The notes under the pieces were generated by a model, which was not told where the DNA came from, did no database searches, and saw nothing but the letters and a program-made list of their open reading frames with translations. DNA of 64,000 nucleotides from a virus: the IMG/VR virus record IMGVR_UViG_3300046792_000213, positions 1 to 64,000 of that record. One strand, given 5' to 3'. Made by a program: the position numbers and the translations under genes. Below, in pieces: positions 1,440 through 59,460 of this stretch (within the stretch, counting starts at the first letter, position 1; every line of letters begins with the position of its first letter).

Positions 1440-2201
1440 TCAGGAAACGGGCAGGTGATAGCCCATCTTGTACAGGTGACTGGACTTCACAAGCACAGTC
1501 ACTTCGATGGGGCGTCGATCGTCGCTGTAAACGATCCGGAAGATCTCCAGGACGGGAGCGTCGCCGGGGATCTCCAGCAGCTCGTACTCCTCCGTCGTGG
1601 CCGATCGGGCGGCCACCTCGTCGACCTGCTCCCGCGGCGGGTATCCCAGCTCGGCAAGGAGAGTGGGTGAGCCGCCTCGAATCTTCCGCCGGTCAGTCAG
1701 CCGGGTGCCGCGCGCCAACTCGATTGGGTAATACGAGTGCGTCAGCTCGGCCGGCTCATCGTTCAGCAGCCCAAGTCGCGTTCTTAGGACCGCTGGAGCG
1801 CCCGCCTCGATCCCCAGGCCCCGGGCGACGCGCTTCGGGGTGGGCACCTCGCCAACCCGCAGGATCTCGTTGCTTCCTCGCTGGCCGCGTGTTGCCGCCT
1901 CCGTGGTCCACCGGTAGGGCTCCCCCGAATCAGACGGGTTCATGTAGGAGACGGGCGTGATCGTCTGGGTTGCTCGGTCGCGGACAAAGACGCCAGTTCC
2001 AGACCGTCCTTCGAGCAGTTGCTCCGCCTTCAAGATGTCCAGGGCGCGCTGGATTGTGACGTTGGACGCCTTGTGCGCCTTGATCAGATCGTCAGTCTTC
2101 GGGATCTGATCGCCAGGCTCCAGTTCGCCGCTCATGATCTGGGCGCGGATGATGTTCGCGATGCGCTGAGCCTTGGGGCGCTTGTCCTCGGTTCGTGCCA
2201 T
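1440..2201 (-). CDS. GntR/HutC-family regulator (KorSA/TraR-like), wHTH plus UTRA
   Basis: IANIIRAQIMSGELEPGDQIP...TIQRALDILKAEQLLEGRSGTGVFV, followed by a UTRA domain; divergent from the xis/tra genes as in pSAM2-type elements. Confidence 0.85.
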   Translation of the reverse strand: MARTEDKRPKAQRIANIIRAQIMSGELEPGDQIPKTDDLIKAHKASNVTIQRALDILKAEQLLEGRSGTGVFVRDRATQTITPVSYMNPSDSGEPYRWTTEAATRGQRGSNEILRVGEVPTPKRVARGLGIEAGAPAVLRTRLGLLNDEPAELTHSYYPIELARGTRLTDRRKIRGGSPTLLAELGYPPREQVDEVAARSATTEEYELLEIPGDAPVLEIFRIVYSDDRRPIEVTVLVKSSHLYKMGYHLPVS

Positions 2202-2758
2202 CAGTCGACTCTCATCTCGTAGCGCATGCGGTGCGGCCCTCGCGTGACCATCGTGGCCGCTTCGAACGGTGCGCCATCCCCGGAGGCGCTTGTGCGGAGC
2301 AGGCTGAACACGGGCTGGCCCTGCTCGATGCGGAGAGCCAACGCTTCGTCGTCTGAGGCGCCTCGTGCCTCTACGTCTTCAGTGACTCGCGCCGCGATGA
2401 AGCCCAACTTGGCGAGCAGTGTCGGTGCGCCACCCGGGATCTTTGCCTTCACAGCTAGCGCCGTTCCTGATGCCACCCGGGTTGGGTAGTAGGAATCGGC
2501 CAACTCGATCGGGGTGCCGTCGAGGGAGATGACTCGGCGGCGGACGATGACAGTTTCGTCCTCGCCCAGGTCGAGCGCTTGCCGGATTGCCACAGGTGGC
2601 GCAACCGGACCCACTTCCACGAGCTTCTGTGTTCCGCGGCCCGCGGTTTCCTTGGTCCAGGCGTCGGGCTCGCCGGGTTCCTGGGGGCGCAGGTACGGCA
2701 TCGAGCTACTGATCCAGCTGATGTCGCTGGTGGCGGGGTCGGGGCCGGTGGACTTCAT
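2201..2758 (-). CDS. Stand-alone UTRA-domain protein (no HTH)
   Basis: RRRVISLDGTPIELADSYYP...KIPGGAPTLLAKLG matches the UTRA of the adjacent GntR; stop/start overlap at 2201. Confidence 0.75.
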   Translation of the reverse strand: MKSTGPDPATSDISWISSSMPYLRPQEPGEPDAWTKETAGRGTQKLVEVGPVAPPVAIRQALDLGEDETVIVRRRVISLDGTPIELADSYYPTRVASGTALAVKAKIPGGAPTLLAKLGFIAARVTEDVEARGASDDEALALRIEQGQPVFSLLRTSASGDGAPFEAATMVTRGPHRMRYEMRVD

Positions 2759-2880
2759 CTTCCCAGCTTATTGCCTTGATGAGCATTTCCTAGTGGCGTG
2801 AAGCGGACACGCATGACCGCTAGTGCTTGCTGCTATCCGTATCAAGGTGTTAAGTTCGTTGGCAGACGCGAAGCCTGCGA

Positions 2881-3096
2881 TTGGAGCCAAACGTGCTGCG
2901 TGTGAAGGAGGTCGCCGACCGCCTGAGAGTGCACCCCGCAACGGTCTACCGGTGGATCGCCGACGGCCGCCTCCCCGCGGTCCGGTACGGCATACCGGTT
3001 GACCCCGACCAGCCCATCAAGGGCGGAGGCGGATCGATCCGCATCCCCGAAGAGGCGCTGGCCGCCGCTGACCTGGCGGCTCCGAAGGCCGCCTAA
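2881..3096 (+). CDS. Excisionase-family (HTH_17) DNA-binding protein
   Basis: LRVKEVADRLRVHPATVYRWIADGRLPAVR...IRIP. Confidence 0.8.
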   Translation: MEPNVLRVKEVADRLRVHPATVYRWIADGRLPAVRYGIPVDPDQPIKGGGGSIRIPEEALAAADLAAPKAA

Positions 3097-3183
3097 CCGA
3101 AAGTGCCCCAGCCGATGCGACTCAACCGCTCGGCCGGGGCTGACCACCCGAGATCGTCAAGTCTTTCCTGAGAGGAGTGTCCC

Positions 3184-3468
3184 GTGAGGTTTCCCGCGAT
3201 CACCGTCAAGCAGGCCGTGCGCAGGTGGGAGGAGCGCGCGAACCGTCCGTTGACGGCGGAGCAGTACGAGCAGGACGCGGAGTTGAATTTCCGTGAGGCG
3301 CGGCGCACGGGTAACCCGGTTTTCGAGGCGCATGCGCGGTTCGCGAAGTTGCATGCGGAGCGGACGCGGCGCGGTCTGGTGACGATCACTGACTTGCCGG
3401 CGGAGGTTTTGCGGCGGTGGGAGTTCGAGCGCGCTTCGGCGCTCTACGACGCTCACCTGCCCCGTTAG
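3184..3468 (+). CDS. Hypothetical protein
   Basis: 94 aa, GAGAGGAG RBS before GTG. Confidence 0.55.
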   Translation: MRFPAITVKQAVRRWEERANRPLTAEQYEQDAELNFREARRTGNPVFEAHARFAKLHAERTRRGLVTITDLPAEVLRRWEFERASALYDAHLPR

Positions 3469-3477
3469 TCCCGGGGT

Positions 3478-3507
3478 GCCGTCTCGGGGGTGCATCCCCG
3501 AGACGGC
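3478..3507. repeat. Perfect 12-bp inverted repeat (hairpin)
   Basis: GCCGTCTCGGGG-GTGCAT-CCCCGAGACGGC, intergenic. Confidence 0.7.
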
Positions 3508-3545
3508 GTTGGCCCGGATCACATCACTGAGAGAGGGATCGAACC

Positions 3546-3749
3546 ATGAGTAAGTCTATGTCGTCGGCCGATCGGGCCGCGCATGCCGCGGGTTCCCACG
3601 TCCGCTCGTTTCTGTCCGTTGCTGGGGAGGAGGCGTTGCGTCGGTCGTATGCGGCGACGCAGCGGATTCTGTCCGAGGAGTATGACGCCGCGCTCGTCGA
3701 GCGGGGTCTGGCTGAGTACCGCGCCTACGCCGACGGGGTGGCGGCGTGA
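3546..3749 (+). CDS. Hypothetical protein
   Basis: 67 aa, GAGAGGG RBS, coupled to the next gene. Confidence 0.55.
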   Translation: MSKSMSSADRAAHAAGSHVRSFLSVAGEEALRRSYAATQRILSEEYDAALVERGLAEYRAYADGVAA

Positions 3750-4276
3750 TGGACGCGACCGACATCGCCACGAAGTCCGCGAAGATTCTCGCCGACCGGT
3801 TCGACGCTGACCGTTTCTGGTTCGCCAGTAGCGGCCTGTTGGCCACGGGTGAGGAGATTGCCCAGCACCTGGAGTCTGTGCTCGCCCTGTTGGAGCGCGG
3901 GGGTTGGGTTCGGAGCTACGGCGCCAGCAGCGACGGCGAGGCGGTCGTTGTAGAGGACCTGGAGGAGACCGCGTCCACGGCGAGGATGGTCCGCCACTTG
4001 GTCAAGGTCGTGACGGCGGTTGTCAGGGATCTCTACGGTTCCGGCCCGTCGGAGCTGACCCTGTCTGAGGTCATGTGGCAGGGCGGGAACAGCGACCTCC
4101 AGTTCGCCGCTACGCGTTGTCTCGATCTGGTGCTCCAGGCCCAGCTTGGCGGCCCGTGGGCGTCCAGTATCAGCTGGTCTTCCCGCCCTGAGCGGACGTT
4201 TGACGAGGTTCGCGACCTGCTGCTGACCGGTGCGGTGTTCGCCCGCGAGCACGGGCCGGCGGGGGTGGCGGCGTGA
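3746..4276 (+). CDS. DUF6197-like protein
   Basis: LERGGW and W..RPERTFDEVRDLL motifs; coupled on both sides. Confidence 0.55.
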   Translation: MMDATDIATKSAKILADRFDADRFWFASSGLLATGEEIAQHLESVLALLERGGWVRSYGASSDGEAVVVEDLEETASTARMVRHLVKVVTAVVRDLYGSGPSELTLSEVMWQGGNSDLQFAATRCLDLVLQAQLGGPWASSISWSSRPERTFDEVRDLLLTGAVFAREHGPAGVAA

Positions 4277-4539
4277 GCGCCGACGCCGCGTGGCCCGAGG
4301 GCGTCATCGCCCGGTACGTGACGGTCGGCGGGGGGGCGGTGGATCTGTGCCATGAGCGTGTCCCCGGTGACAGTCGGGCGATGGGCACTGCTGCCGCTTG
4401 CGCTGGGTGTCCCGCTACCTGCTTCGAGCCGCATGCGGACTACGTCACTCGTTCCGGTGCTGACAATGCGGCCCGGGAGTGGGCGCAGTCCCACGCTGCC
4501 ACCTGCCGGGCCGTGCCGAAGCCGGGGGGTGCGTCGTGA
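4273..4539 (+). CDS. Small CxxC...HAxxC zinc-finger protein
   Basis: CAGC...AREWAQSHAATC. Confidence 0.6.
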   Translation: MSADAAWPEGVIARYVTVGGGAVDLCHERVPGDSRAMGTAAACAGCPATCFEPHADYVTRSGADNAAREWAQSHAATCRAVPKPGGAS

Positions 4540-4685
4540 GTGCGCTTACTCCTCCGGCGGATCAGGGCCTTGCTGCGGCGCAGTTGGCGGAGCAGGTCCG
4601 GCAGCACATGGAAGCCGCGAAGGCCGCTGCGGAGGCTGCTGAGGCGGCCCGCCAGCAGGCTGAGGCGCTGAGGGGGCAGCGGTGA
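4536..4685 (+). CDS. Small Ala-rich coiled-coil protein
   Basis: GTGA overlap with the upstream gene; 49 aa. Confidence 0.45.
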   Translation: MSALTPPADQGLAAAQLAEQVRQHMEAAKAAAEAAEAARQQAEALRGQR

Positions 4686-4953
4686 GTGCGAATCCGCACG
4701 AGCAGGAGCCGACTCCGCCCGAGTGGCCTACCCCTACGCCGGTCCGTGAAGAGGCCGACGAGGACCGCAGTACCAGCATCCCGCTCGACATCGTCTAACC
4801 GCTCCGAGCCCGGGCCGGCCAACACCAACCCCACGGCTGGCCGGCCCGGGCCACCCCAGCGGCTCAGGCCGACACCCCGGACAACTACCCCCACCGTCCC
4901 ACGGTCGGCCCGGAGATCGGCCAGCCACCCCACCCCGGAAGGAACCACCCGCC

Positions 4954-5028
4954 ATGCGCCTGCACGCGGCAGGGATTCTCCTGCCCATCCCCCTGATCGT
5001 CTTCGCCACTCTGCTTAGCCACCGCTGA
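4954..5028 (+). CDS. 24-aa hydrophobic micro-protein
   Basis: GGAAGGA RBS; MRLHAAGILLPIPLIVFATLLSHR. Confidence 0.35.
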   Translation: MRLHAAGILLPIPLIVFATLLSHR

Positions 5029-5116
5029 CCTGTAGCCCTGGCCGCCCGGACCCCGTGCCCGGACGGCCAGGAAATCACTCAGCAACCACCACCCGAACCC
5101 CTACCGAAAGGCAGTC

Positions 5117-5500
5117 ATGAGCATTTTCGATGCCCTGGGCAACGCCACATCCACCGCGTACCACGGCCACAAAGCGCAGAAGGAAGCGGCCCGGTTCGCG
5201 GCCAGTGTGAGGCCGGGCCACACCTACTACAGCGTCGCTACCATCCACGGGGGGCACCCCGGCCTGCCCGATCAGGTACTCCTGGAGTGGCGGTTCAGCA
5301 AGCCGGGCCGCTGGATCGGCCAGGGCGCCAAGGACGGGCACCTGACCGCCGCCGGGGCGTGGCTCGGCTACGGGCCGCTGCACGCCACCCGGCCCCCGGG
5401 TCTGATGACGCACAAGGAGCTCAGTCGCCGTCCGGGCTGCTACCCGGACGCCGAGTCGATTCCGTTCGGCGAGGTCCGACTCTCCCCGGCGGGTGTGTGA
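5117..5500 (+). CDS. Hypothetical protein
   Basis: 127 aa, GAAAGG RBS, high third-position GC. Confidence 0.6.
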   Translation: MSIFDALGNATSTAYHGHKAQKEAARFAASVRPGHTYYSVATIHGGHPGLPDQVLLEWRFSKPGRWIGQGAKDGHLTAAGAWLGYGPLHATRPPGLMTHKELSRRPGCYPDAESIPFGEVRLSPAGV

Positions 5501-5501
5501 C

Positions 5502-5738
5502 ATGGCGACGTCGACTGAGACGTTCCGCGGCGCCCGCACAGAGGGCGGGTGCGTTGTTGTCACCGTCACGGTGACTACCCGGTTGGGCTCGTCGTGGGGC
5601 ACCTGGGAGTGCGCTTGTGGCCGGTCGGGGGCGGACGGCACGAGCCGTACCCACTTCAGGTCGACGGTGGACACGGTCGTCCTCAAGCAGGCCGCGGGTG
5701 CGCACGTCGCGGTCTGCGACGGGACCGGGGAGGCGTGA
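5502..5738 (+). CDS. Small Cys/His zinc-finger-like protein
   Basis: WECACG...AGAHVAVC. Confidence 0.5.
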   Translation: MATSTETFRGARTEGGCVVVTVTVTTRLGSSWGTWECACGRSGADGTSRTHFRSTVDTVVLKQAAGAHVAVCDGTGEA

Positions 5739-6064
5739 TGGGCTGGACTATCAGTCACGGCGCCCCGAATCCCGGCGGACGGTTCGACGGGTACCACTCC
5801 CTTAGTTACGGGCGGGTTGGTGAGTGGCGGGACGCCCTGCTGTCGCTGGGCCTGTCGGGCCGGGACGCGGCGATCCTGAGGCCCCTGACTCAGCGCCGGA
5901 CCGACAGTTGGTTCGAGGTTGAGCCCCGGCGGGCGGCTGCGATTGCCGCCGTCCTGCGGCAGGTTGTGCATCGGATGCCGCGTGGGCAGCGGGAGATGAC
6001 GGAGACTCTGGCGGCTGCGGCTGAGCGGGCGTCGGCGGCTGGCGAGAAGTGGCGGTGGTCGTGA
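5738..6064 (+). CDS. Hypothetical protein
   Basis: TGATG coupling, GGGGAGG RBS; MGWTISHG...W.WS. Confidence 0.55.
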   Translation: MGWTISHGAPNPGGRFDGYHSLSYGRVGEWRDALLSLGLSGRDAAILRPLTQRRTDSWFEVEPRRAAAIAAVLRQVVHRMPRGQREMTETLAAAAERASAAGEKWRWS

Positions 6065-6633
6065 TGGCCGCCAGCATGGCCGTGTTCGAGGAGCTGCTGA
6101 CCGACGTCGGCCCGGACCTCGGCGACGAGGTGGAGGCGTGGCTGCACGACCCGGCCCGTACCGCGCACCGCCTGGTGTCCCTGCCGACGGCGGCCCTCGT
6201 CGAGCAGGCCCTTGGTGCGCAGCCGGCCGCCGAGGTCGCCGGCCCGGTTCTGCCGGGCGGGGCATGGCGGGTAATGCCCGACCGGCTACTCGCCTTGCAC
6301 CCGGGCCGGCGGCCGGAGCGCCTGGAGCGGCTGCGTATCCCCGTCGCCCAGCACCTGGAGCTGACCGCCCGGGTGCTGGAGGAGTGGGGGTGGGCTCAGC
6401 CCGGACGGCACAACCGCACGATCACTGGGGGCCGGTGCCCCCGCGGCGCCCAGTACGCGCTGTTCAGGCTCGGGTACGGCACGGAGCACACCCTCTACGA
6501 AGGCGCGCGCCGCATCCAGGGAGTCCTCGCCCAGCGCGGCGTGACCGCCCCGTACTGGGAGTGGAACGACTGGGCCACCACCACCCACGAGCAGGCCATA
6601 GCCGTCGTGCGCGCCGCGGCGGTGGTGACGTGA
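6064..6633 (+). CDS. DUF6197-like protein (paralogue of 3746..4276)
   Basis: LEEWGWAQ...GGRCPRGA...WND...THEQAIAVVRAA. Confidence 0.6.
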   Translation: MAASMAVFEELLTDVGPDLGDEVEAWLHDPARTAHRLVSLPTAALVEQALGAQPAAEVAGPVLPGGAWRVMPDRLLALHPGRRPERLERLRIPVAQHLELTARVLEEWGWAQPGRHNRTITGGRCPRGAQYALFRLGYGTEHTLYEGARRIQGVLAQRGVTAPYWEWNDWATTTHEQAIAVVRAAAVVT

Positions 6634-6908
6634 TGCCCACCGTGCTGATCGCCCGCCCGGCCCGGTCCTGGCGGCAGGTCCCGCTGGCTGCGCTGCTGCT
6701 GGCCGCACAGGTCGCGGTCGGGGTGATCGTCCTGGTCCTGCGGACGCTGCGGGCCGTGACCACGCTGACCATCGCCGCCACCGGCCACATCGAGCACCAG
6801 CTGGCGACCCGTACCGGCCGTCCCGCCCTGTCCGACACCGGCATCGCCGCACTCGCCGCCGCATTCGCCCACGAGTTCTACGCCGCCTACCACCAGCCCG
6901 CCCGATAG
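6633..6908 (+). CDS. Small membrane protein (possible spread function)
   Basis: Hydrophobic LAALLLAAQVAVGVIVLVL; TGATG coupling. Confidence 0.5.
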   Translation: MPTVLIARPARSWRQVPLAALLLAAQVAVGVIVLVLRTLRAVTTLTIAATGHIEHQLATRTGRPALSDTGIAALAAAFAHEFYAAYHQPAR

Positions 6909-6915
6909 GAACGCC

Positions 6916-7137
6916 ATGACCGCCGAAGACGCCCTCGCCGCGAACCACGACACCACGGAGACCCCCGAGTACCGGCGCCTGAACGCCGCCGTCGAGGCCG
7001 CCTACATCAACCCCAACCTGCCGGACCGGTACCGCGACCCCCGTGACCGCAAGGACGCCCACAAGCTGCGCTGCCGCTGCACCCCCTCGGAGCCCGACGC
7101 CGACGGCTACTGCCTCGCCTGCGGCTGCCAGATCTGA
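6916..7137 (+). CDS. Small Cys-rich protein
   Basis: EYRRLNAAV..A...LP; CRC...CLACGC. Confidence 0.5.
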   Translation: MTAEDALAANHDTTETPEYRRLNAAVEAAYINPNLPDRYRDPRDRKDAHKLRCRCTPSEPDADGYCLACGCQI

Positions 7138-7177
7138 CCCACCACCCGATCCGCTGACCTGCAAAGGAGATTCCACC

Positions 7178-8551
7178 GTGACCGGCCAGTCCACCAACGG
7201 GACCACCGTAAACGGCGCCATCCGGCCCCCGCGCGTGCCTGTGCTCGGGGACTGGCAGCCGATACGCCTCGGCGGCGTTCCCGCCATGATCACCGAGCCC
7301 GAGCCCGCCCCCGAGCCGATCGTCGAGCCCGTGACCGTCCCCTCCGACCCTGAGCCCCGCATCGACCACATCGCGCTCGCCGAAGCCGAGCGCATCCGGA
7401 CCCTTGCCGAGGCCGAGGCCGATGCAATCCGCGCCAAGGCAGTCGAGGAGGCCCGTAAGCAGCGCGTCATCAACGACCGTGCCGAGCGGAAAGCCGCCGA
7501 AGAGTCCGCAGCGTCTGCGGCCCGCATCGCCGAGAGCAACCGGCGCAAGACCGAGGCAGAGCGCACCACCGCCGACGCCGACAAGCAGGCCGCCGAGCAG
7601 CAGGCCGCCGAGCAGGCCGCCGCCGCCGAGATCAAGCACGCCGATGACAAATGGCGGCTCTACGCGATCTGGTTCGCGTTCGTCTGCGGCGTCGTCAGCC
7701 TGCCTGTGCAGATGTCGTTCTTCTGGAACCCGAAGGCGCCGTGGATGGCGGCGGCCCCGCTCATGCTCGAAGGCGCGGCGTGGGTCGTCCACCGCGGGGC
7801 TCGTGCGGCTGTCGCGAACCGGCGCCCGGTGTGGCACTACCGCACCATCGTGTGGCTCCTCGCGGTCCTGGCTGCCGGGGTGAACCTGTACCACGGACTT
7901 CACTCCTTCGATATCGGCACCGCGGTTGCGACGGCGTTCGCTTCGATTGCCGGCCCCGGGGTGTGGGACCTCCACGAGCACGGCCGCATCCGGAAGCGTG
8001 ACGGGGTCCTGACCCGTCGGGAGCGCAAAGTGCAGGAGCAGGCGGAGAAGGATGCCGCCGCCGAGAAGGCCGCGCGTGAGGCTTCCGCCCGGGCGGAGAA
8101 GGACGCCGCTGCGAAGGCCGCCGAGGAGGTCACGCAGAAGCTCGCCGCGGACCGCGGCGAGAGCTTCCCCGAGGTGTGGAAGCACGCCCTGAAACTGGCT
8201 GCCGCGCTCGGCGAAACCACCGTCACCGAGGCCGTCTGGCGTCGTGCCCACAAGGACGTCGAGGGCACCGACCCGGGCGACTCCGCGGAGGCTCAGCAAC
8301 TCCGCAACAAGGCCGCGCGGCGCATGCTCGATGCTCGCGCAGACGCCCCCGAAAAGAGCGTCTGGAAGGGCACAGAAACGGTCGTAAACGCACAGCGTGC
8401 AAACCAAATGCCCCGCACTCAGCGGGGGCCCGCACGGAAGCCCCCTGTGCGCCGTGTGGGTGACACCGAGCGGTACGTCGACGCGGCCCGCAAGCAGGCA
8501 TCCATCACCGCCAAGAACGCCACCGACACCACCCCGCGAGAGGACTTCTGA
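7178..8551 (+). CDS. Spd-like (DUF2637/SpdB2-type) multi-TM coiled-coil protein
   Basis: AAAGGAG RBS plus GTG; coiled coils flank about 4 hydrophobic helices; immediately upstream of traB. Confidence 0.65.
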   Translation: MTGQSTNGTTVNGAIRPPRVPVLGDWQPIRLGGVPAMITEPEPAPEPIVEPVTVPSDPEPRIDHIALAEAERIRTLAEAEADAIRAKAVEEARKQRVINDRAERKAAEESAASAARIAESNRRKTEAERTTADADKQAAEQQAAEQAAAAEIKHADDKWRLYAIWFAFVCGVVSLPVQMSFFWNPKAPWMAAAPLMLEGAAWVVHRGARAAVANRRPVWHYRTIVWLLAVLAAGVNLYHGLHSFDIGTAVATAFASIAGPGVWDLHEHGRIRKRDGVLTRRERKVQEQAEKDAAAEKAAREASARAEKDAAAKAAEEVTQKLAADRGESFPEVWKHALKLAAALGETTVTEAVWRRAHKDVEGTDPGDSAEAQQLRNKAARRMLDARADAPEKSVWKGTETVVNAQRANQMPRTQRGPARKPPVRRVGDTERYVDAARKQASITAKNATDTTPREDF

Positions 8552-8552
8552 G

Positions 8553-10595
8553 ATGGCTATCGACCACCTGCCCGACACGAGCGTCGAGGCCGTCGCCACC
8601 GTCCCGTCGGTGCCCGTGCAGAGCCCGTTCGTCGACCCCGACTACACCCCGGCCAAGCCCGCGCCGGCCCGCACCGGGTCCGCCGCCATGGTGGTCGCGA
8701 AGGCCACCGGGCGCGGCCTCGGAACCGGCACCCGCTGGGTCGTCACCGGGGTCGTACACAGTGCGCGTCAGTGGGTCGAGCTGTACCACGACGACTACCC
8801 CCAGATCGTCGCCCTCGCGGTTGCCGAACGGAAGGCCGTCAAGGACACCGCCGAGGCAGACGCGGCCAAGCTCGTCGTGAAGCAGTGGCGCCGCGAGCAC
8901 AAGCGGCACCGCCTCCAGCACCTCGGCCGGACCAGCCTCGGCACCCTCGCCACCGGCGGCACCCTCGCCATGGGCGGCCTCATCGTCGGCGGATGGCTCG
9001 ACCTGCTCCTCGCCGGTGTTGGCCTCGGCGCCACGGCATGGCACGGGCAGCGGGGCACGGGGTCTGCGGGAATCGAAGCCGAGCCCGAGCAGCAGGCGAT
9101 CGGCGCCGCCCTGCAGGGCGATGTCGTCAACGGCGGGGAGGCGCTTCTGGAGGCGTTCGCCGCCATCAAGGTCCCCGAGGGATCCCGTGTCGTGGCCCAC
9201 CAGCCCGGCCCGGACGACACGTCGGTCACCATCGTGAACCTGCCCGCGAACTTCACCGTCACCAGCCTCAAGGCCAAGACCGAGGAACTGGCGGGCGCCC
9301 TCGGCCGCGACGTCACCATGGTCGACATCCGCAAGGCCGGCCACGCCAACCAGGCCGCGGTCTGGCTGTCCAGCCGGGACCCTTTCGAGATTCCCCGCCC
9401 GTCACCGCTGCTCACCGGCAGCGCCGCCGTGGACGCCTGGCGGTACGGCATCGCCGTCGCGTGGAACAAGCGGGGCGAGCAGATTCTGCTGCCCATCACC
9501 AACTCGAACATCCTCATCGCCGGAATGACCCGCTCCGGCAAGGGCGTTGGGGCCGCCAACCTCACCGTCGGCGCCAGCCTCGACGTGCGCATCAACCTGC
9601 GGGTGGTGCCCGGCAAGATGAACGGCGAGTGGGACGCCTACGCCCGCGCCGGCGTCGCCAGCACTTACTTCAAGCCCGACCCGAAGCGACTCCTCGCCCT
9701 GCTGGAAGCCCTCAAGGCCGACAAGAACCGGCGCGAGGCCATCCTCGGCAAGCTCGGCAAGTCCAAGATGACCGCGGACACCATCGTCAAGCTCGGCGGC
9801 ATCGAACTCCTCATCATCGACGAACTGGCTACCTACACCCGGCCCGGCCGCCCGCTGCGTGACGAGATCCTCGAAGCCCTCATCGAACTGTCCGCGGTCG
9901 CTGCCGGGGCCGGCATCCTCATGGTGCTGATCACCCAGTACCCGGAGGCCGACGTCATCCCGCAGGCGTTGGCGATGAACTGCGGCACCCGGTGGGCTAT
10001 GCGCGTCGACAACGCGGGGCAGTCCAACGCGATCCTCGGCGGTGGCGCGTCCGGTTCCGGCCGGGACGCGTCCAAGTTCGACCCGCCCCGGCCGGGGCTC
10101 GGCTGGTTGGTCAACCCGTTCGCCAGCGTCACCGACCTCGCCCGGAGTTTCGACCTCGACGAGGACGACCGCGGCGAGATCACCCTGCTCCTGGAGCGGG
10201 CGGCACGACTCCGCGACAAGGCAGGCCGGCTGGTCGGCCAGTGGGACGACCCAATCGAGGCCACGTTGCAGCAGGAGACCGGCATGTCGTCGGCCGGCGG
10301 CGGGCCGGACCGCAACGGTGTCCCCGCCCGCCTCCTGCACCTGATGGACCCGCAGCAGGCCGCCGCCCACGAGGCGCTCACCGAGTGCGTCGAGGTCATG
10401 GACGCGTTCGGCCGGGACGCGCAGGTCGAGGAGGTGGCGGTGAAGCTGGGCATGCCGACGGAGCGGCTGAGTGAACTGCTGCGACTGGCCGGGGCCGGCT
10501 CCACCGTGAAGATCAACCACCCGGAGCGCGGGCGCGTGAACGGCTACCGCCGGGGCGACCTCACCGCGCTCCTCAACCGCGCCACAGCCGCCTGA
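8553..10595 (+). CDS. traB: TraB, FtsK/SpoIIIE-family conjugative dsDNA translocase
   Basis: N-terminal TM segment, Walker A AGMTRSGKG, Walker B LLIIDEL, ITQYP, C-terminal wHTH ending GYRRGDL. Confidence 0.85.
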   Translation: MAIDHLPDTSVEAVATVPSVPVQSPFVDPDYTPAKPAPARTGSAAMVVAKATGRGLGTGTRWVVTGVVHSARQWVELYHDDYPQIVALAVAERKAVKDTAEADAAKLVVKQWRREHKRHRLQHLGRTSLGTLATGGTLAMGGLIVGGWLDLLLAGVGLGATAWHGQRGTGSAGIEAEPEQQAIGAALQGDVVNGGEALLEAFAAIKVPEGSRVVAHQPGPDDTSVTIVNLPANFTVTSLKAKTEELAGALGRDVTMVDIRKAGHANQAAVWLSSRDPFEIPRPSPLLTGSAAVDAWRYGIAVAWNKRGEQILLPITNSNILIAGMTRSGKGVGAANLTVGASLDVRINLRVVPGKMNGEWDAYARAGVASTYFKPDPKRLLALLEALKADKNRREAILGKLGKSKMTADTIVKLGGIELLIIDELATYTRPGRPLRDEILEALIELSAVAAGAGILMVLITQYPEADVIPQALAMNCGTRWAMRVDNAGQSNAILGGGASGSGRDASKFDPPRPGLGWLVNPFASVTDLARSFDLDEDDRGEITLLLERAARLRDKAGRLVGQWDDPIEATLQQETGMSSAGGGPDRNGVPARLLHLMDPQQAAAHEALTECVEVMDAFGRDAQVEEVAVKLGMPTERLSELLRLAGAGSTVKINHPERGRVNGYRRGDLTALLNRATAA

Positions 10596-10599
10596 AACA

Positions 10600-10705
10600 C
10601 CCCGGACAGGGGGCGGACAGCCGCGCAAACCCGCAGGTCACGGCCCGGACACTCGGTCGGACGGCGGGCGGACGGCGACCGGACACGTCCGCCCCTCGTC
10701 CGGGT
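10600..10705 (+). repeat. Putative clt (cis-acting locus of transfer) repeat tract
   Basis: Six direct CGGAC cores at 10603, 10614, 10646, 10658, 10669, 10680 plus inverted GTCCG at 10687 and 10698, directly after the traB stop. Confidence 0.55.
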
Positions 10706-10832
10706 CCCGCCCGGGTGGCAAACCGGGGCGAACCCGACAGGCATCCGGGGCGCAAACCGGGATTAACAACGCACGGTAACACCGGGGTCAGACCGACCCC
10801 GGACCACCCCAACCAAGATCGGAAGGAATCCC

Positions 10833-11243
10833 ATGCCCACCCAACCACCCATGACCGCCGACGAAGTGTTCGACGGCTACGACTTCCGCACCAACGGAGG
10901 CCGGGAAGGCACGACCTTCTACTTCCGCGGCCACCTGACCGCCGAGGAGATCGCCGCCACGTACAGCCGCACCTACCCCAATCCCGAGGCCACCGGCTCG
11001 TACCGCATCGATGCCGCCAGTGGCCGCCACGCATGGCACGTCTTCACCCAGCACGAGGACGGCTGCTACCTGATCGCCGCCGCCGACGGTCCGTTCGACC
11101 TCGACCGCGACTACGACCTCTGCACCTGCAAGGCGGCACAGTCCCGCCAGAACGACGGGCGCGGCTACGAGTACCGGCACCCGCACCCCGCCACCAAGCG
11201 CACGCCGGGTGCCATCCCCGTCACCTGGGTCACCGCGGCCTGA
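10833..11243 (+). CDS. Hypothetical protein
   Basis: 136 aa, preceded by the shared leader. Confidence 0.65.
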   Translation: MPTQPPMTADEVFDGYDFRTNGGREGTTFYFRGHLTAEEIAATYSRTYPNPEATGSYRIDAASGRHAWHVFTQHEDGCYLIAAADGPFDLDRDYDLCTCKAAQSRQNDGRGYEYRHPHPATKRTPGAIPVTWVTAA

Positions 11244-11326
11244 CCGAGGCCACCGACCGCGTGCGCCACGGCTCCGCCGACTGACATCTGCCCCAGCCGA
11301 ACCCAACCAGGATCGAAAGGACTCCC

Positions 11327-11548
11327 ATGCCCTACGAGCAGTACGACAAGCCGACCACTCTTCGCGAGGCGGACCAGAACATCGCGTGCATCCAGCGCTG
11401 CCAGCGGGAACTCCGCGACCGGGGTCGCACCACTGACGCCGCCGGATGGGACAGCGAACTGATCGAGCAGCAGCAGGCACGCGAGGAGATCAAGCAGCAG
11501 GGCAACGCCGCCCTCTCCAAGATCTTCCGCAGCATCCACAGCAAGTGA
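11327..11548 (+). CDS. Hypothetical coiled-coil protein
   Basis: 73 aa, preceded by the shared leader. Confidence 0.6.
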   Translation: MPYEQYDKPTTLREADQNIACIQRCQRELRDRGRTTDAAGWDSELIEQQQAREEIKQQGNAALSKIFRSIHSK

Positions 11549-11659
11549 TCGGAGAAACCCCATGCCCAAGCAGACCTACATCATCACCGCCCTCCGGCAC
11601 GTAGGCGACTACTCGTACTGAACGCCGCAGCCCCACTCGGCAAGATCGAAAGGACCCCC

Positions 11660-11857
11660 ATGGCAGCCAAGATCGTGTCTACCGTCCCGAACAGGTCGGG
11701 AGCCCACGTCAACGTCATTGAGAAGAACGGCCCCAACAACCTCGGCTGGGAATGCACTGGCTGCAACACCAGCAACGTCGTCGGCGGCTACGACTTCCAG
11801 ATCACCCGGCAGGCCCAGGAGCACGCCAACACCTGCTCATTCCTCCCGAGGGGCTGA
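11660..11857 (+). CDS. Small CxxC...HAxxC zinc-finger protein
   Basis: WECTGC...AQEHANTC. Confidence 0.6.
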   Translation: MAAKIVSTVPNRSGAHVNVIEKNGPNNLGWECTGCNTSNVVGGYDFQITRQAQEHANTCSFLPRG

Positions 11858-11859
11858 TC

Positions 11860-12306
11860 GTGGCATCCCTCGCGATCATCTCGTTCGGCTACCTGCACGG
11901 GACCCCACCAGACGCCCACATCACGGTCGACCTGCGCACCCACTTCCGAGACCCGCACTTCGACCCGGCGCTGCGGGACATGACCGCCCACGATTGGGAG
12001 ATCCGCGACACCGTCCTCAATACCCCCGGTATTCGCGCCCTCGTCGACGCCACCGTCGCCATGATCCGCGCCTACCAGGCCGCCCCCAGCCCCGCCCCGC
12101 TCACGGTCGCCGTGGGCTGTGCAGGAGGTAGGCATCGCGCTGCGGCATTTGCCATGGAGGTCGGAGCCCGGACGAGTGCCACTGTCACCCACCGCGACCT
12201 GACCAAACCCGTCATCAACCATCGAACCGAAAGGACCCCTCATGCCCCTCGACCTCACCGGCAAAGCCTGGGGCCGCAAGGTCATCCCCAAGTTCACCGA
12301 CGCTGA
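11860..12306 (+). CDS. RapZ C-terminal-domain-like protein
   Basis: IISFGYLHG..P.AHITVDLR..FRDP and VAVGCAGGRHR...V.HRDL motifs. Confidence 0.75.
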   Translation: MASLAIISFGYLHGTPPDAHITVDLRTHFRDPHFDPALRDMTAHDWEIRDTVLNTPGIRALVDATVAMIRAYQAAPSPAPLTVAVGCAGGRHRAAAFAMEVGARTSATVTHRDLTKPVINHRTERTPHAPRPHRQSLGPQGHPQVHRR

Positions 12307-12445
12307 ACTCGCAGACGCCATCGAGACCTACGAGACCGCGCTAGCCGACCCCAACCTCGACCCGAACCCCGACGTGTACCGCGGCCTCATCCGCGAGTGG
12401 GAACAGCGCCACGGGCTCGCCGAAAAACCCCGGTACGAGATCTGA
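12242..12445 (+). CDS. Hypothetical protein
   Basis: 67 aa, GAAAGGA leader. Confidence 0.55.
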   Translation: MPLDLTGKAWGRKVIPKFTDAELADAIETYETALADPNLDPNPDVYRGLIREWEQRHGLAEKPRYEI

Positions 12446-12462
12446 CACCCGAAAGGAACCCC

Positions 12463-13169: not shown

Positions 13170-13171
13170 CC

Positions 13172-13369: not shown

Positions 13370-13370
13370 G

Positions 13371-13655: not shown

Positions 13656-13683
13656 CCAAGCACAACCAGAGAAGAGGCTGACC

Positions 13684-14144: not shown

Positions 14145-14212
14145 CCACTCCGCCGGCCAACCCACAAGCCCCGCCCAAAGCCACACCACCAACCGGCCCC
14201 GGACCCACGACA

Positions 14213-49146: not shown

Positions 49147-49707
49147 TCACTCGCGTACTCGAGCTGTCGCGTCCCGCAGGATGGCGACCTTCGTGCCGCT
49201 ACTGATCGCGGTCACGTGGGTTCCGCCCTTGAGGGTGGACTCCCAGAGCTCGTCGACGATCCGCCGAATCGCTTCCTCGTCCGGGATGTCGGGGTTCGCC
49301 TCAAGTTCAGCGAGGACAGTCATGAACTCGGGGACCTGACGGAGAGCCTGGAACCAGTCGCTGACGTCCTCGATCTCCTTGCTTCCGCGTTCGGGACGCT
49401 CGGCGATCCAGCGCGCCATCTCGCTCGAGTCTGGCCAGTCCGGGGAGTCCCTATGGCACGGCGCACACAAAAGGATGACGTTCGACGCATTGTCCGAGCC
49501 GCCACGACTCGAGGGCACGACATGGGCACGCTCGAGCGTGGCCCGCTCCCAACTCGCCCGAGGCGTCGCCTTCGCCCAGCGCTCCGAGTGCCAGCCGCAG
49601 GCGAAGCAGCACGGCTCCTTCAAGTCCTCGAGCATCGGCGCGAACGCGTTGCGGTCAGGGCTCGAGGCCCAGTGCTGTGCGAGCTGCCACTTGTCAGGAA
49701 CTGTCAT
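49147..49707 (-). CDS. HNH endonuclease
   Basis: CFACG...LERAHVVPSSRGGSDNASNVILLCAPCH. Confidence 0.8.
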   Translation of the reverse strand: MTVPDKWQLAQHWASSPDRNAFAPMLEDLKEPCCFACGWHSERWAKATPRASWERATLERAHVVPSSRGGSDNASNVILLCAPCHRDSPDWPDSSEMARWIAERPERGSKEIEDVSDWFQALRQVPEFMTVLAELEANPDIPDEEAIRRIVDELWESTLKGGTHVTAISSGTKVAILRDATARVRE

Positions 49708-49991
49708 GCCTGCCTCATCTCGTCGCGCGTTTGAACCGCGACCGGGGAGCCCCACCAGTTCTCGCCGAAGATTTCTACCAGCCGGTCGGCCACCTTGATG
49801 AGGCCCTTCTCGCGTAGTTGCTCGTCGGCGATCTCCGGGGCTTTCAGGTACTCAGCGATCCAGACGTCAAAGAGCACCGTCAGTTTGGCAGCCAACCAGT
49901 CCGTCGAGTCCGTGTCGTTGGCCTCGAGCAGGCGAGGGTCGATGTCCATGCGTACTCCGCTTCGAGTGGCAACTGCGGGCGGGACGGTCAC
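49704..49991 (-). CDS. Hypothetical protein
   Basis: Coupled between recombinase and HNH; may start at ATG 49949. Confidence 0.5.
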   Translation of the reverse strand: MTVPPAVATRSGVRMDIDPRLLEANDTDSTDWLAAKLTVLFDVWIAEYLKAPEIADEQLREKGLIKVADRLVEIFGENWWGSPVAVQTRDEMRQA

Positions 49992-51043
49992 AGTCCGATC
50001 CCTCTCATCGGGTTCTCCTCGTGGGCGTCGACCGCGCGGATGTACTCGAGCACCTGCGGCGAGCCTTCAGCCCAGCGACCCTGAGCTCGGATGGCCGAGA
50101 TGGGCGCGCGCTTCTTGTACGCCTCGGCAGCCCCGCCGGCACGGAAGCCGTGGGCGGTGTAGACGAGGTTGTCTTTCGGGAGGACCCGGGTAGCGCGTCG
50201 CTGGACCATCTCGTTGATGGCGTCCCCGGACATGGTGTCGCCCGTGATCACGTCCCATCGGTTGATGGAGCGGAGGAGTCGCCCCGTGGTGATGCCGCGC
50301 TCGAGCAGCGCTTGGCGGTAGGCGCGGACGACGCGGATGGGGTCGGTGTCGTTGTGGATCCCTCGAGGGACGACGACTTCCTCTCCGGCGCCTTCCTGGT
50401 CGGTCTTGGAGGTCCGGATGAGGATGGTGAGGTCGCCTTCGTCGTCTTCGACGATGTCCTCGATGTGGAGCCCTGCGAGTTCGGAGCGGCGGGCCATCAT
50501 GGCGAAGCCGAGGATGAAGATGGTGCGGTCACGGAGGCCGGACAGCGTCTCGAGGTCGCAGTCCTCGATCAGCAGGCGCAGTTTGACCAGGCCGATGGCG
50601 GGCGCCTTGCGTTTCCGGGTGCCGCTTTCGGCGCGCTTCTTCCGGTAGCCCTTGAGGACGCGTCGGGCTTCACCGGTCTCGGGCTGGTGTGGATGGCCGG
50701 CCACCTTGTGGGCGGAGCGGATGACGGCAATGGCTTGCTCGATGCTCGAGGGCGCCAGTGGGCGGCCGGTGCTCGAGGGGGTGGTCGTGAGGTGGGTGAC
50801 GTACTCCCACAGGGTTCTGGCGGTTGCCGGGAGGGGGACGCGTCCTCGATCGGCGCACCACTTGGTGAAGGTGTCCCACTGGCGGCTGTATGCGCGCTGG
50901 GTGTTGTCGGGGATTGATTCCTCGAGGGCGCGAAGCGCTTCGTCGGAGACGTAGTGGTCTCGCTCGGTGTGGACGGCCGCTGGGACCGGTGCTCGCGGGG
51001 CTGGGAGATGGGGTCCGACGGAGGACTCGAGGGGTTCGCTCAT
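49988..51043 (-). CDS. Cre-like tyrosine recombinase/resolvase
   Basis: NTQRAY...W..F..WC; catalytic RRSEL, SKTDQ, HGFR.G, GRW, Y in VLEYIR; no arm-binding domain. Confidence 0.88.
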   Translation of the reverse strand: MSEPLESSVGPHLPAPRAPVPAAVHTERDHYVSDEALRALEESIPDNTQRAYSRQWDTFTKWCADRGRVPLPATARTLWEYVTHLTTTPSSTGRPLAPSSIEQAIAVIRSAHKVAGHPHQPETGEARRVLKGYRKKRAESGTRKRKAPAIGLVKLRLLIEDCDLETLSGLRDRTIFILGFAMMARRSELAGLHIEDIVEDDEGDLTILIRTSKTDQEGAGEEVVVPRGIHNDTDPIRVVRAYRQALLERGITTGRLLRSINRWDVITGDTMSGDAINEMVQRRATRVLPKDNLVYTAHGFRAGGAAEAYKKRAPISAIRAQGRWAEGSPQVLEYIRAVDAHEENPMRGIGL

Positions 51044-57078: not shown

Positions 57079-57374
57079 GCTGCGGTCTCCTTCGCTTCGG
57101 TGAGGCGTTCGGGGTGGACGTGGCCGCCGTGGATTGCGTAGCCCGCGAGGTGGCAGGGCTGGCCGGGGGCGACCTGGCACGTAGGGCAGACGGCCGTGGC
57201 GCGCGCCCACGCTGTGATGCGGGACGGGTGCGGCTGGGGCATCAGGCGGCGCTTCGAGACGGTGGTGCAGGGGCGCCGCTCGCCGGCCCCGCAGTGAGGG
57301 CAGGCAACGGAACGGGCCGGGTGCTGCGGGGCGCGCAGCAGGTGGCGGATCGTGTCGGGCATTTCAGCGCCCAT
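57075..57374 (-). CDS. Tandem zinc-finger protein
   Basis: CPHCGA...C...HPSR and CPTC...C...HPER. Confidence 0.65.
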   Translation of the reverse strand: MGAEMPDTIRHLLRAPQHPARSVACPHCGAGERRPCTTVSKRRLMPQPHPSRITAWARATAVCPTCQVAPGQPCHLAGYAIHGGHVHPERLTEAKETAA

Positions 57375-58015
57375 CAGGACTCCTCGGTGTCGTCGGCGGT
57401 GGCGGGCTTGGGTGGAAGGGCGGCGAGGGCGGCGGCGGATGCGGCTTTGCGGCGCGCTATCTCGTCGGCTTCGCCGGTGGGGGCAGCGCCGTTCGCGGTG
57501 TCGATGCGGGACGGGTGGAACAGTGCGAGGCGGCGTCCGCCGTAGGAGCGGCAGGCGTGCAGGGGTTTGGCGTGGCAGTGCGGGCAGGCCACCCCGAGGG
57601 GGCCGCGGACGTTGCCGTCCTTGTCGGGCACGTGCTGGCCGACTCCGGACAGGAGCGCTTTCATGTCGCGGGGCTTGAGTTCCAGGCCGTCGGCGGCGCG
57701 GGTCCGCTGGTTTCGGACTGCGGCGAGGTACGCCTGCACGTCGTCGGGGTCGGCGTCTGGGACGGCGGCGGGGAGGCCTGGGCCTTGGATGTCGCGGGCG
57801 TTGTCGCCGCGGCGCTGCCGAATAACGCCGATGATCTCGGCGGGGCTGACGAACGGCTGACGGCGTGCCATCTCGGCGGCGGCGGAGCGGCATTCGAGGA
57901 GGGTGTAGTCGCCGAGGACGTCGTGCCAGGCGTCGGGGGTGTACTCGTCGAACTTCTGCTGGGGGCACAGTGCCCGGACGTACCGGGCGAGCATCACGGT
58001 CTCGTCGGGGCTCAT
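57374..58015 (-). CDS. Helicase loader/inhibitor-like protein with zinc finger
   Basis: Follows the initiator; DAWHDVLGDY...FVSPAEI; CPHC...HPSR. Confidence 0.6.
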   Translation of the reverse strand: MSPDETVMLARYVRALCPQQKFDEYTPDAWHDVLGDYTLLECRSAAAEMARRQPFVSPAEIIGVIRQRRGDNARDIQGPGLPAAVPDADPDDVQAYLAAVRNQRTRAADGLELKPRDMKALLSGVGQHVPDKDGNVRGPLGVACPHCHAKPLHACRSYGGRRLALFHPSRIDTANGAAPTGEADEIARRKAASAAALAALPPKPATADDTEES

Positions 58016-58992
58016 CCTGCGGTTCCTTCCTGCTGCATGCGGGCTTGGGCGCGCTGCATTGCGCGACCGAAGAGGTCGTCGGTCTCCTGCTGCTGGCGGT
58101 TGGTTGCCTGACGGAGCGGTACGACTTCGCCGTTGGAGTCGGCTGGGGTGTCGGCGAGGGATTCCCATCGGCCGATCCATGCGGTGACGCTGTCGGGTTC
58201 GCCTCGTCGCTCTGCGGCGAGGCTGGCGGAGCGGACCATGACGGGGATGCCGAGGCGGTCGACCTGGATGCGGATGCGCTCCCAGTCGGTGAACTTCTTG
58301 ATGTCCCATGCGACGGCGCCGAGGCCGGCTTCGGCGAGGGCGGTTCGGAGCGGCTGGAGTGCGTTGGGAACGCCGCCGGTTGCCGCCGGGTTGCTGCTGC
58401 TAGCAGCAGTTCTTCCGTAGGAAGAACTGGTAGGGGACGGGGCAGGGGACGGGGTGCCGTTATTAACGGCGTTACGAATCTCGCCGACCTGGGGTGATGC
58501 GTTTTTTGCGGGGGTGTCTTTTTTCGAGTTCGTGTCGTCTTCGTGTCGCGTTGCTGTCGCGTTCGTGTCGCTGGAGGGCTCCGAAGCGTGGTCCGTAACG
58601 CCGTTACGCATGGCGTCACGCACCGCCTTCTCCGCGGCAGCCTTCGCTTCCTTCTCGGCCTTCTTCCGGTCGCGCCACGCCTGCTGCCGGGCTGCGTTCG
58701 CCTCCCGTTCGGCCTGGACCTTGGCGCGGTCCGGGTTGTACTCCAGGAAGTCGTGGATGACCCAGCCGCCGGCGACCCGGTCCCACAGTTGCCTGTCTTC
58801 CAGTTCCTTGGCGGCCGTCTTGGCACCGCGGACGTGGGCGATGACGCGCAGCTCTGATTCGAGGATCTTGCCCTCGGTCAGATTCTCCGAGGCCCAGCAC
58901 AGCGCGGAGACGTGCAGCCGGAAGGCGCGGTCGGACAGCAGCGCCACCTTGCGGTGCGATGGAAAGCGGTCATCCAGGCGGACCCAGGGCAT
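58012..58992 (-). CDS. Phage replication initiator (replisome organiser)
   Basis: MPWVRLDDRFPSHRKV...GWVIHDFLEYNP...RQQAWR. Confidence 0.75.
   Translation of the reverse strand: MPWVRLDDRFPSHRKVALLSDRAFRLHVSALCWASENLTEGKILESELRVIAHVRGAKTAAKELEDRQLWDRVAGGWVIHDFLEYNPDRAKVQAEREANAARQQAWRDRKKAEKEAKAAAEKAVRDAMRNGVTDHASEPSSDTNATATRHEDDTNSKKDTPAKNASPQVGEIRNAVNNGTPSPAPSPTSSSYGRTAASSSNPAATGGVPNALQPLRTALAEAGLGAVAWDIKKFTDWERIRIQVDRLGIPVMVRSASLAAERRGEPDSVTAWIGRWESLADTPADSNGEVVPLRQATNRQQQETDDLFGRAMQRAQARMQQEGTAG
58455..58622. repeat. Putative replication origin (iterons plus T-tracts) inside the initiator gene
   Basis: Four tandem 11-mers 58528-58571, T6 tracts at 58502 and 58519, flanking TAACG/CGTTA palindromes. 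Confidence 0.55.
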
Positions 58993-59194
58993 CGGTTTCT
59001 TCCTTCGGAGGTGCTGGTCAGTGGGTCTTGGGCATGCGGAACCAGGCCTCTCAGGGCGGCTTCACTGATTGCTGCTGCGCCGCCTTGGCGTGTCTCCAGA
59101 CTACCTCAAGGTGCCCGTGCACCCGAGGGGCTTTCGAGGGGCACTTCGTAACGGCGGGGTGCCCAGCCGGTGCACGGTCAGCTACGCTGGCGGT

Positions 59195-59413
59195 ATGACG
59201 ACGAAGGGGACCCCTGGCCGTGTGATCCGCGTGGATGACGAGACCTGGGCGGCATACGGCGAGGCGTGCAAGGCCAAGGGGCTCGCGCGCGCTGCTGACC
59301 TGCGCGTCTACATCAACAAGGAGATCGCCGCGTACCGCCGTCGCACACGCGACGAGGCGGCGCACTGGAACGCCGGCGCAACCGAGCCGTATTCGCCGAC
59401 CTCCGACGACTGA
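59195..59413 (+). CDS. Ribbon-helix-helix (CopG-like) protein
   Basis: TPGRVIRVDDETWAAY...LRVYI; divergent from the initiator. Confidence 0.65.
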   Translation: MTTKGTPGRVIRVDDETWAAYGEACKAKGLARAADLRVYINKEIAAYRRRTRDEAAHWNAGATEPYSPTSDD

Positions 59414-59437
59414 CACGTCCCCCTCCTTCCTTCCCCT

Positions 59438-59460
59438 GGCCCCGCTTCGGCGGGGCTTTG
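59438..59460 (+). terminator. Intrinsic terminator after the RHH gene
   Basis: GCCCCGC-TTCG-GCGGGGC-TTT. Confidence 0.7.

Follow-up and report, generated by a model that had tools for sequence, protein, structure and literature searches.

The window, that is, the whole 64-kb stretch of DNA analysed here, is the first part of a 76.4-kb virus contig and comprises a kor/SpdB2-like/TraB/clt-like cassette at 0.15-15.0 kb, mostly on the plus strand, and a virion and lysis module at 15.1-41 kb on the minus strand. The remaining 12 kb beyond the window carry a tyrosine integrase of 445 aa (contig 74,859-76,196) along with a repressor-like gene. The features of the window are:

154-606, minus: g001, DUF6907 protein (Pfam E 1.3e-17)
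718-1287, minus: g002, GIY-YIG and GntR-HTH fusion of the kor block (Pfam)
1440-2201, minus: g003, GntR/UTRA repressor, KorSA/TraR-like (Pfam UTRA 2.5e-22, GntR 6.8e-14)
2201-2758, minus: UTRA-only protein in the same operon as g003 (Pfam UTRA 9.1e-19)
2881-3096, plus: g004, HTH_17 protein (Pfam 5.7e-14)
3746-6633, plus: small cassette genes, including two DUF6197 paralogs at 3746-4276 and 6049-6633 (Pfam)
7178-8551, plus: g011, SpdB2-like membrane protein and putative TraB partner (two predicted TM segments; lead-level support)
8553-10595, plus: TraB, FtsK/SpoIIIE-type dsDNA translocase (profile and motifs)
10596-10850, no strand: clt-like repeat region (CGGACA x4, GGGCGGAC x3, GCAAACC x3, inverted repeats)
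10851-15017, plus: small genes following traB, spd-like only in position, with DUF4236 at 13941-14144
15021-15057, no strand: GC-rich hairpin between the convergent cassette and phage late genes (sequence)
15117-15911, minus: antirepressor, Bro-N and KilAC (Pfam)
16811-18301, minus: lysis cassette of a 1-TM protein, the 3-TM holin-like g025 and a GH25 endolysin
18703-31166, minus: tail genes, including tape measure (22706-26977) and minor tail (28145-29401) (PHROGs)
31833-33569, minus: probable major capsid protein (phrog_13692)
33619-39506, minus: protease/scaffold, portal-MuF fusion and large terminase (PHROGs)
41434-41726, minus: tRNA-Trp and tRNA-Met (ARAGORN)
47670-48581, minus: Ku homolog (Pfam 3.9e-34)
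49988-51043, minus: g059, Xer/Cre-like tyrosine recombinase, the second recombinase of the contig
57374-58992, minus: phage replication initiator g075 and zinc-finger protein g074 (phrog_2447 at 5e-25; Pfam)
60431-61462, minus: sliding-clamp-like protein

Central to the cassette is traB, for which the single-sequence match to Pfam FtsK is weak (E 2e-3, below the cut-off), whereas a six-sequence profile aligned with the FtsK motor 2IUU at E 4e-12 over Walker A, Walker B and the ATQRP region, in agreement with the assignment made in the initial annotation. Walker A reads GMTRSGKG with an invariant K330 and ends in GKG, not GK[ST]; Walker B (D423-E424) is likewise invariant, and a TQYP motif lies at 461-464. 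Furthermore, Kyte-Doolittle hydropathy predicts a TM segment at 138-158, the C-terminus is conserved (RVNGY), and residues 616-646 give a weak HTH match (E 4.6e-5). The gene g011, which precedes TraB at 22 of the 35 loci, did not match Pfam DUF2637, but tblastn recovered DUF2637 proteins of Streptomyces plasmids (E 4e-5) and an Atlas look-alike is labelled "putative SpdB2" (score 0.86). The earlier designation of spd-like elements thus holds for g011 as a lead, and for the other genes downstream of traB only by their position.

Equally characteristic is the 255-bp stretch after traB (10,596-10,850), whose repeat units include CCCGGACA and GGGCGGAC and which contains 3 of the contig's 10 copies of GGGCGGAC and 3/5 of its copies of GCAAACC. 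Since these repeats are enriched here and CCCGGAC(A) recurs in 3-7 copies within 300 bp after traB in most relatives, the clt-like element is retained as a candidate. Further downstream, homologs of g017, g019, g020 and g021 also occur near TraB in relatives. Of the convergent terminator that had been placed at about 15,040, the GC-rich hairpin between convergent genes stands, but a T-tract terminator scan at 15,021-15,057 found nothing.

On the regulatory side, the korSA-like gene proposed earlier corresponds to g003, which is 73% identical to its counterpart in the complete provirus G016 and 30% to pZL12.80, and a Kor-type GntR repressor is retained with TraB in 8 loci. Homologs of g002 adjoin Kor in 7 TraB loci, those of g001 lie near TraB in two relatives (G006 and L100), and g008, one of the small cassette genes, is 79% identical in the relative G012. 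The HTH_17 protein g004 had been read as xis-like; the gene is real, but the excisionase role was dropped because in G016 it accompanies the kor and tra genes far from any att, and it is more likely a cassette regulator. In runs X2-X4, just short pieces of cassette genes were seen, at 90-95% identity.

The virion gene set described initially is present, with TerL (E 4e-100), portal-MuF (E 4e-85), protease, tape measure, minor tail and GH25 lysin, the capsid being recognized by partial fold match only. Pfam and PDB sequence searches with the capsid and tail ORFs gave no match; a low-confidence capsid model has partial HK97-type fold matches (SU10, SPO1), the capsid gene is 85% identical in G006, and the tail genes are 57-79% identical in G001, G003 and G006. 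The terminase, portal, capsid, tail, lysis and lysogeny-module genes by which a temperate member of the Caudoviricetes is recognized are all assigned, the capsid and repressor weakly. In addition, the holin-like g025 has a pZL12 counterpart at 71% identity. When 40 kb were compared with phages and plasmids by megablast, no match was returned. An RHH gene, previously placed divergent from the initiator, had no family match at E<=0.05. The Cre-like resolvase with a lox-like site is upheld as far as g059 is a genuine tyrosine recombinase, with 85% identity in G012, 35% in CP042280.1 and 32% to pZL12.36c, but the lox-like site amounts to two imperfect inverted repeats, both within coding region, and is not supported.

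The lysogeny module of the phage itself includes the integrase. Together with the repressor-like gene, the integrase gene is divergent from the early genes, a trio kept in about 44 relatives, and isolate provirus records end 2-190 bp past the integrase. The earlier statement that no integrase was present accordingly applies to the window and the 15-kb junction, but not to the contig. On continuous contigs, relatives of the integrase are followed by a 6-9 kb cargo interval and then by lysis genes, and the cassette here occupies this variable interval between attP/int and the lysis genes.

The contig is 94% complete according to CheckV and of 'linear' topology class in IMG/VR. No terminal direct or inverted repeats were found, an ORF across a direct circular join from contig end to start stops after 5 codons, and a minus-strand gene is cut by the right end. 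A core shared by the two ends was sought and came out at chance level, a search for tRNA fragments at them found none, and exact scans of the end sequences in genome and metagenome contig collections gave no match.

These data bear on the reading originally proposed, a conjugative phage-plasmid that would persist extrachromosomally like pZL12 and use g059 as a Cre-like dimer resolvase. Among the closest known systems is the Streptomyces plasmid-phage pZL12/phage ZL12 (GQ919031.1; Zhong et al. 2010, J Bacteriol 192:3747, cited in PMC3583192 and PMC7157519), of which pSLE1 is a relative (PMC4487206). In both elements, tailed-phage genes share one replicon with a GntR regulator and a tra gene of FtsK type, and the g059-type recombinase, at 32%, is common to them and favours an extrachromosomal life. 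So does CP042280.1 (Streptomyces sp. WAC08241), an unannotated circular plasmid of 92.6 kb that IMG/VR lists as a virus: this true relative of pZL12 is itself a phage-plasmid, with a pZL12-type backbone and plasmid lifestyle, and bears this TraB type (52-63%, its reading frame split in the record) and a g059-like recombinase. Clear host genes are, moreover, not evident on the contig. However, pZL12 and this element have just 7 distant homologs in common, their TraB similarity is undetectable and their virion modules are unrelated; the pZL12 prophage is a circular plasmid that encodes ParAB, whereas six-frame family searches of the present contig, in which positive controls were detected, found neither ParA nor ParB, and Prim-Pol was not found either. 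The checks for circularity and for parA/B that the initial annotation had suggested both came out negative, terminal repeats being absent and the ends failing to join in frame. With the lineage's own integrase and repressor-like gene on the contig, a relative integrated between an att pair (G012) and a provirus class for 8 of the 10 TraB-bearing records tested, the phage-plasmid reading is improbable, and the element looks integrative.

We therefore read the contig as the near-complete genome of a temperate, integrating, siphovirus-like Streptomyces phage with a plasmid/AICE-type transfer cassette of its own, at a probability of roughly 0.72. A competing explanation holds that two elements are involved, either an AICE or its remnant in tandem with a prophage at one att site, the AICE integrase and Rep lying left of the contig start, or an assembly chimera. 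The cassette does lie at the left edge, where the contig starts; att cores in this group are as short as 9 bp, so that a hidden core at about 15 kb is conceivable; and the kor block (610-2,863) has a depth of about 4.2 as against about 11 elsewhere. Across 15 kb, by contrast, where a depth check had been proposed, coverage is even (9.3-12.6 for the cassette, 10.8 for the phage genes), and an independent assembly of the source soil metagenome supplies a 12.8-kb Logan contig that matches from 13,954 to past 20,000 with zero mismatches. Neither an integrase nor a Rep or host gene is present at the 15-kb junction, 1-15 kb as a whole contains no integrase, and the ORFs there have no Rep family match, RepSA and RepAM not being among the models searched by name. 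No relevant internal att-like repeat of at least 14 nt and no repeat pair flanking the cassette was found. The initial annotation, which had reported no AICE replication gene, host gene or att-like repeat here, is borne out on these points.

Relatives also argue against two elements. G012 is a 78.6-kb relative of the same layout in a Streptomyces chromosome, contained between 9-bp att repeats (TCACGATCA); this single att pair encloses int, Kor, TraB (69%), the lysis and tail genes in convergent orientation, the g059 recombinase and the early genes, and the empty site was seen in four related genomes. G016, a complete provirus, carries g004 (69%) and TraB (58%) with its Kor between early and late genes, and two further complete proviruses (L083, L089) have the same cassette internally. 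Considering also the int, cargo interval and lysis gene order on continuous contigs, a pair of elements or a chimera is very improbable, slightly more so than a phage-plasmid. That the TraB cassette and the virion genes form one element, and are neither chance neighbours nor a chimera, is supported by the bridged junction, the G012 island and the complete proviruses, and this part of the original proposal holds.

TraB relatives occur in 35 IMG/VR virus records, in several of which the cassette lies elsewhere in the genome. TerL of the g041 type was found in none of ten TraB-bearing records because other terminases are used there. FtsK-type genes also occur in the virion-module relatives G006 and G001. 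Among 50,697 records of cultured phages, this TraB was not found.

Compared with the tra-spd regions of pSVH1 and pIJ101 (TraR/KorA, SpdB2, TraB, clt; PMC4447253), the cassette likewise pairs a GntR repressor with an FtsK-like TraB whose gene is immediately preceded by one for a membrane protein and adjoined by short direct repeats, and its GCAAAC units recall the pIJ101 clt (PMC3583192). It differs in residing within a 76-kb phage genome, in a divergent TraB with a Pfam match below the cut-off and a GKG Walker A, and in a likeness of g011 to SpdB2 at lead level. AICEs such as pSAM2, SLP1 and pMEA300 (PMC2440964, PMC3218068) are 9-24 kb in size, flanked by att and devoid of virion genes, whereas this element measures 76 kb, encodes a full virion set, yielded no gene of the RepSA, RepAM or Prim-Pol type, carries its integrase as part of the phage lysogeny module and shows no att pair around the cassette.

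Judged from its gene content, the element may, in addition, be transmitted from hypha to hypha in particle-free form. Once the phage genome had excised and replicated, TraB hexamers would attach to the repeats adjoining traB and drive the double-stranded DNA through hyphal walls and cross-walls, a process that g011 and the small proteins could assist and that the Kor repressors would otherwise hold silent, and the outcome would be capsid-free spread beside virions. The combination of virion and tra genes has a known functional precedent in pZL12. To our knowledge, pZL12 is the sole element shown to combine both routes, and TraB transfer has never been demonstrated for an integrated phage of this type.

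A phage-borne cassette could, alternatively, serve purposes other than cell-to-cell transmission, namely movement of the infecting or induced genome from one compartment to another within a single mycelium, or a Kil-Kor addiction or exclusion module, or it could be decaying cargo. traB-traR pairs behave as Kil-Kor systems, and spreading within the mycelium is driven by TraB and the Spd proteins (PMC4447253). The cassette, moreover, shifts position among relatives and is accessory, since TraB was not detected in the closest virion-module relatives (G002-G005), genomes that are only 53-76% complete. However, TraB is intact, its catalytic motifs, its partner and the repeats are conserved, and conjugal transfer of pZL12 requires a tra gene and two neighbouring genes (PMC3583192). 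Such a non-transmission role is therefore unlikely, though less so than either of the other two alternatives.

Returning to transmission by an integrating phage, it is possible, at somewhat less than even odds, that integrating Streptomyces prophages of several lineages are widespread 'conjugative prophages', in which TraB, an SpdB2-like partner and clt would, after excision, move the whole genome between hyphae without capsids or lysis, perhaps mobilising host DNA in the manner of AICEs. Should the cassette be functional, a second, particle-free route of spread, independent of receptors and lysis, would be open to temperate Streptomyces phages; the boundary between prophage and AICE would be blurred, with a bearing on gene flow, including that of biosynthetic clusters, in soil actinomycetes. 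The prophage of Streptomyces sp. NPDC020983, which occupies about 88.9-167.5 kb of contig NZ_JBIRRA010000015.1 and has a defined att pair, offers a cultured system. What the present contig adds to this group is not a new principle but one further member and one arrangement, in which the cassette is placed with attP/int on one side and the lysis genes on the other.

The 64,000 bases of the window are the start of a single 76,393-base contig from a soil metagenome, stored as a virus record, classed as linear in IMG/VR, estimated to be 94% complete (CheckV), and carrying 103 genes according to GC3-based gene calling. G+C content stays at 66-72% along its whole length, neither terminal direct nor inverted repeats were found, and no close DNA relative was present among 50,697 phage and 72,556 plasmid records. 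The longest repeat is a 26-nt exact direct repeat (61891-61916 and 62694-62719), whose copies lie at two consecutive gene junctions, g082/g081 and g081/g080. The organization is as follows.

0.15-15.0 kb, left part of the transfer cassette, minus strand: DUF6907 protein, GIY-YIG/GntR fusion, GntR/UTRA repressor, UTRA-only protein
0.15-15.0 kb, remainder of the cassette, plus strand, divergent from the preceding genes: HTH_17 protein, two DUF6197 paralogs, g011, TraB, about 10 small genes
15,021-15,057: GC-rich hairpin between cassette and phage genes
Right of the hairpin, minus strand: antirepressor, holin-like protein, GH25 lysin, tail genes (including a 1,423-aa tape measure), probable capsid protein, protease, portal-MuF fusion, TerL
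Farther right in the window: two tRNAs, Ku, HNH nucleases, g059 (Xer/Cre-like recombinase), N6 methylase, phage replication initiator, clamp-like protein
Contig beyond the window: exonuclease, AAA_24, PDDEXK protein, PAPS-reductase-like protein, third DUF6197, anti-repressor-like protein, g102 (weak-HTH gene)
Contig 74,859-76,196, beyond the window: tyrosine integrase, 445 aa

The phage part thus spans 15.1-76.2 kb; its capsid assignment, based on a conserved PHROG and partial HK97-type fold matches to a poor model, is probable.

The proposal that cassette and virion genes form one element is supported by the source run, whose Logan contigs tile 610-20,000 without mismatch; one of 12.8 kb spans the 15-kb junction, with depths of 9.3-12.6 on the cassette side versus 10.8 on the phage side, so the join is no artefact of one assembler. 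The kor block (610-2,863) reaches a depth of only about 4.2, versus 9-13 (about 11) over 2.85-20 kb, and the change in depth comes at 2,852-2,863, within the region of the divergent promoter. A false join could be suspected here; however, because the kor/HTH_17 arrangement is also kept in G016, a complete isolate provirus, and in L101, population heterogeneity, perhaps involving two variants, may more likely explain the low depth.

As to lifestyle, early genes, g102 and the integrase form a trio kept in about 44 relatives, and isolate provirus records stop 2-190 bp past the integrase, which together indicate that the integrase is the phage's own and that attP lies just downstream. In relatives on continuous contigs, the integrase is followed by 6-9 kb of cargo and then by the lysis genes, an interval occupied by the cassette in the present contig. 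No ParA, ParB or Prim-Pol was found on the contig. Nor does the contig close on itself: the final 100 bases make up the 3' end of a gene on the minus strand, direct joining to position 1 yields a stop after five codons, and the two ends have no common core. The reading as a conjugative phage-plasmid in the initial annotation is therefore unsupported. The terminal frame (contig 76294-76393, L001:16294-16393 on the right-hand piece, minus strand) is high in GC3, truncated by the contig end and convergent with the integrase, from which it is separated by a hairpin at about 76,243-76,280; it may represent host flank or missing phage sequence. As for the "Cre-like resolvase with a lox-like site", the Xer/Cre-like recombinase is present as g059. 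It has homologs both on pZL12 (pZL12.36c) and on plasmid CP042280.1 and may act as a resolvase, but a search for a lox-like site gave none.

An integrated counterpart occurs in Streptomyces sp. NPDC020983 (NZ_JBIRRA010000015.1) as a low-GC island with the gene order of the contig: integrase-like gene, GntR/UTRA, TraB (69% identical) accompanied by homologs of g007, g008, g017 and g020, convergent lysis and tail genes, and early genes that include a homolog of g059 (85%). In four related genomes, TetR, two small genes and hemerythrin are adjacent, forming the empty site; against these, homology stops at 88,914 and restarts at 167,501-504, and the 9-bp core TCACGATCA occurs at both junctions (88,906-88,914 and 167,495-167,503; pieces L069 and L073), which identifies a single 78.6-kb insertion. 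This TraB prophage interrupts the hemerythrin gene within its first ~12 codons, and its edge integrase, h012, gave no Pfam match. Adjoining the site is h010 (L069:6267-6431), a 54-aa gene that most of 63 Streptomyces genomes match at several positions with ~80% DNA identity; it is perhaps a small ribosomal-protein paralog present in multiple copies.

In G016, the cassette lies between early and late genes (Kor 73%, HTH_17 69%, TraB 58%), while in L083, L089, G006 and G001 cassettes are immediately upstream of packaging genes. TraB relatives occur in 35 IMG/VR records, and eight of the ten TraB-bearing records tested are proviruses, mostly 85-100% complete. Altogether, the cassette is a recurrent yet accessory phage module of shifting position.

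The transfer function of the cassette is wholly inferred. TraB (680 aa) matches Pfam FtsK below the cut-off as a single sequence; a six-member alignment displays an invariant Walker A lysine, the Walker B residues DE and the motif TQ(Y)P, and used as a profile it hits the FtsK motor domain (E 4e-12). Relatives are found on 51 plasmids (48 from Streptomyces) and on none of the 50,697 phage records. In 22 of 35 related loci, g011 (457 aa, two TM) precedes TraB; its likeness to SpdB2/DUF2637 is weak, and its architecture resembles that published for SpdB2 (PMC4447253). The 255 bp behind traB contain CGGACA four times, GGGCGGAC three times (of ten on the contig) and GCAAACC three times (of five), and most relatives have CCCGGAC(A) 3-7 times at the same site. 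TraB binds clt sites built of 8-bp repeats (PMC4447253), and pIJ101 clt contains GC/AAAC repeats (PMC3583192); the repeats fit both as a candidate clt.

Among known systems, pZL12 (GQ919031.1) is a circular Streptomyces plasmid-prophage that encodes ParAB and carries a tra gene of the FtsK type, and its transfer requires the tra gene and two neighbouring genes (PMC3583192). It has seven distant proteins in common with the contig, whereas TraB similarity is undetectable. Virion-bearing AICEs are not described in the AICE surveys and reviews examined, nor are integrated TraB prophages in the open-access papers searched. The circular Streptomyces record CP042280.1 (L066/L067; 92.6 kb), an unannotated "plasmid", is a phage-plasmid similar to pZL12, with which many of its proteins share 45-80% identity; it has the window's TraB type, in a frame split at ~39,140.

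Further observations concern the gene content. Three DUF6197 paralogs are present, at 3746-4276 and 6049-6633 in the cassette and at contig 71806-72243 (L001:11806-12243) among the phage early genes. The early genes also include two HNH endonucleases, a YspA/SLOG-family protein and a PAPS-reductase-like protein (49147-49707, 63284-63904, L001:3892-4320 and L001:9242-10189), together with the Ku homolog (47670-48581, minus strand, Pfam E 3.9e-34), whose counterparts in the relatives L140, L152 and L153 come after the integrase.
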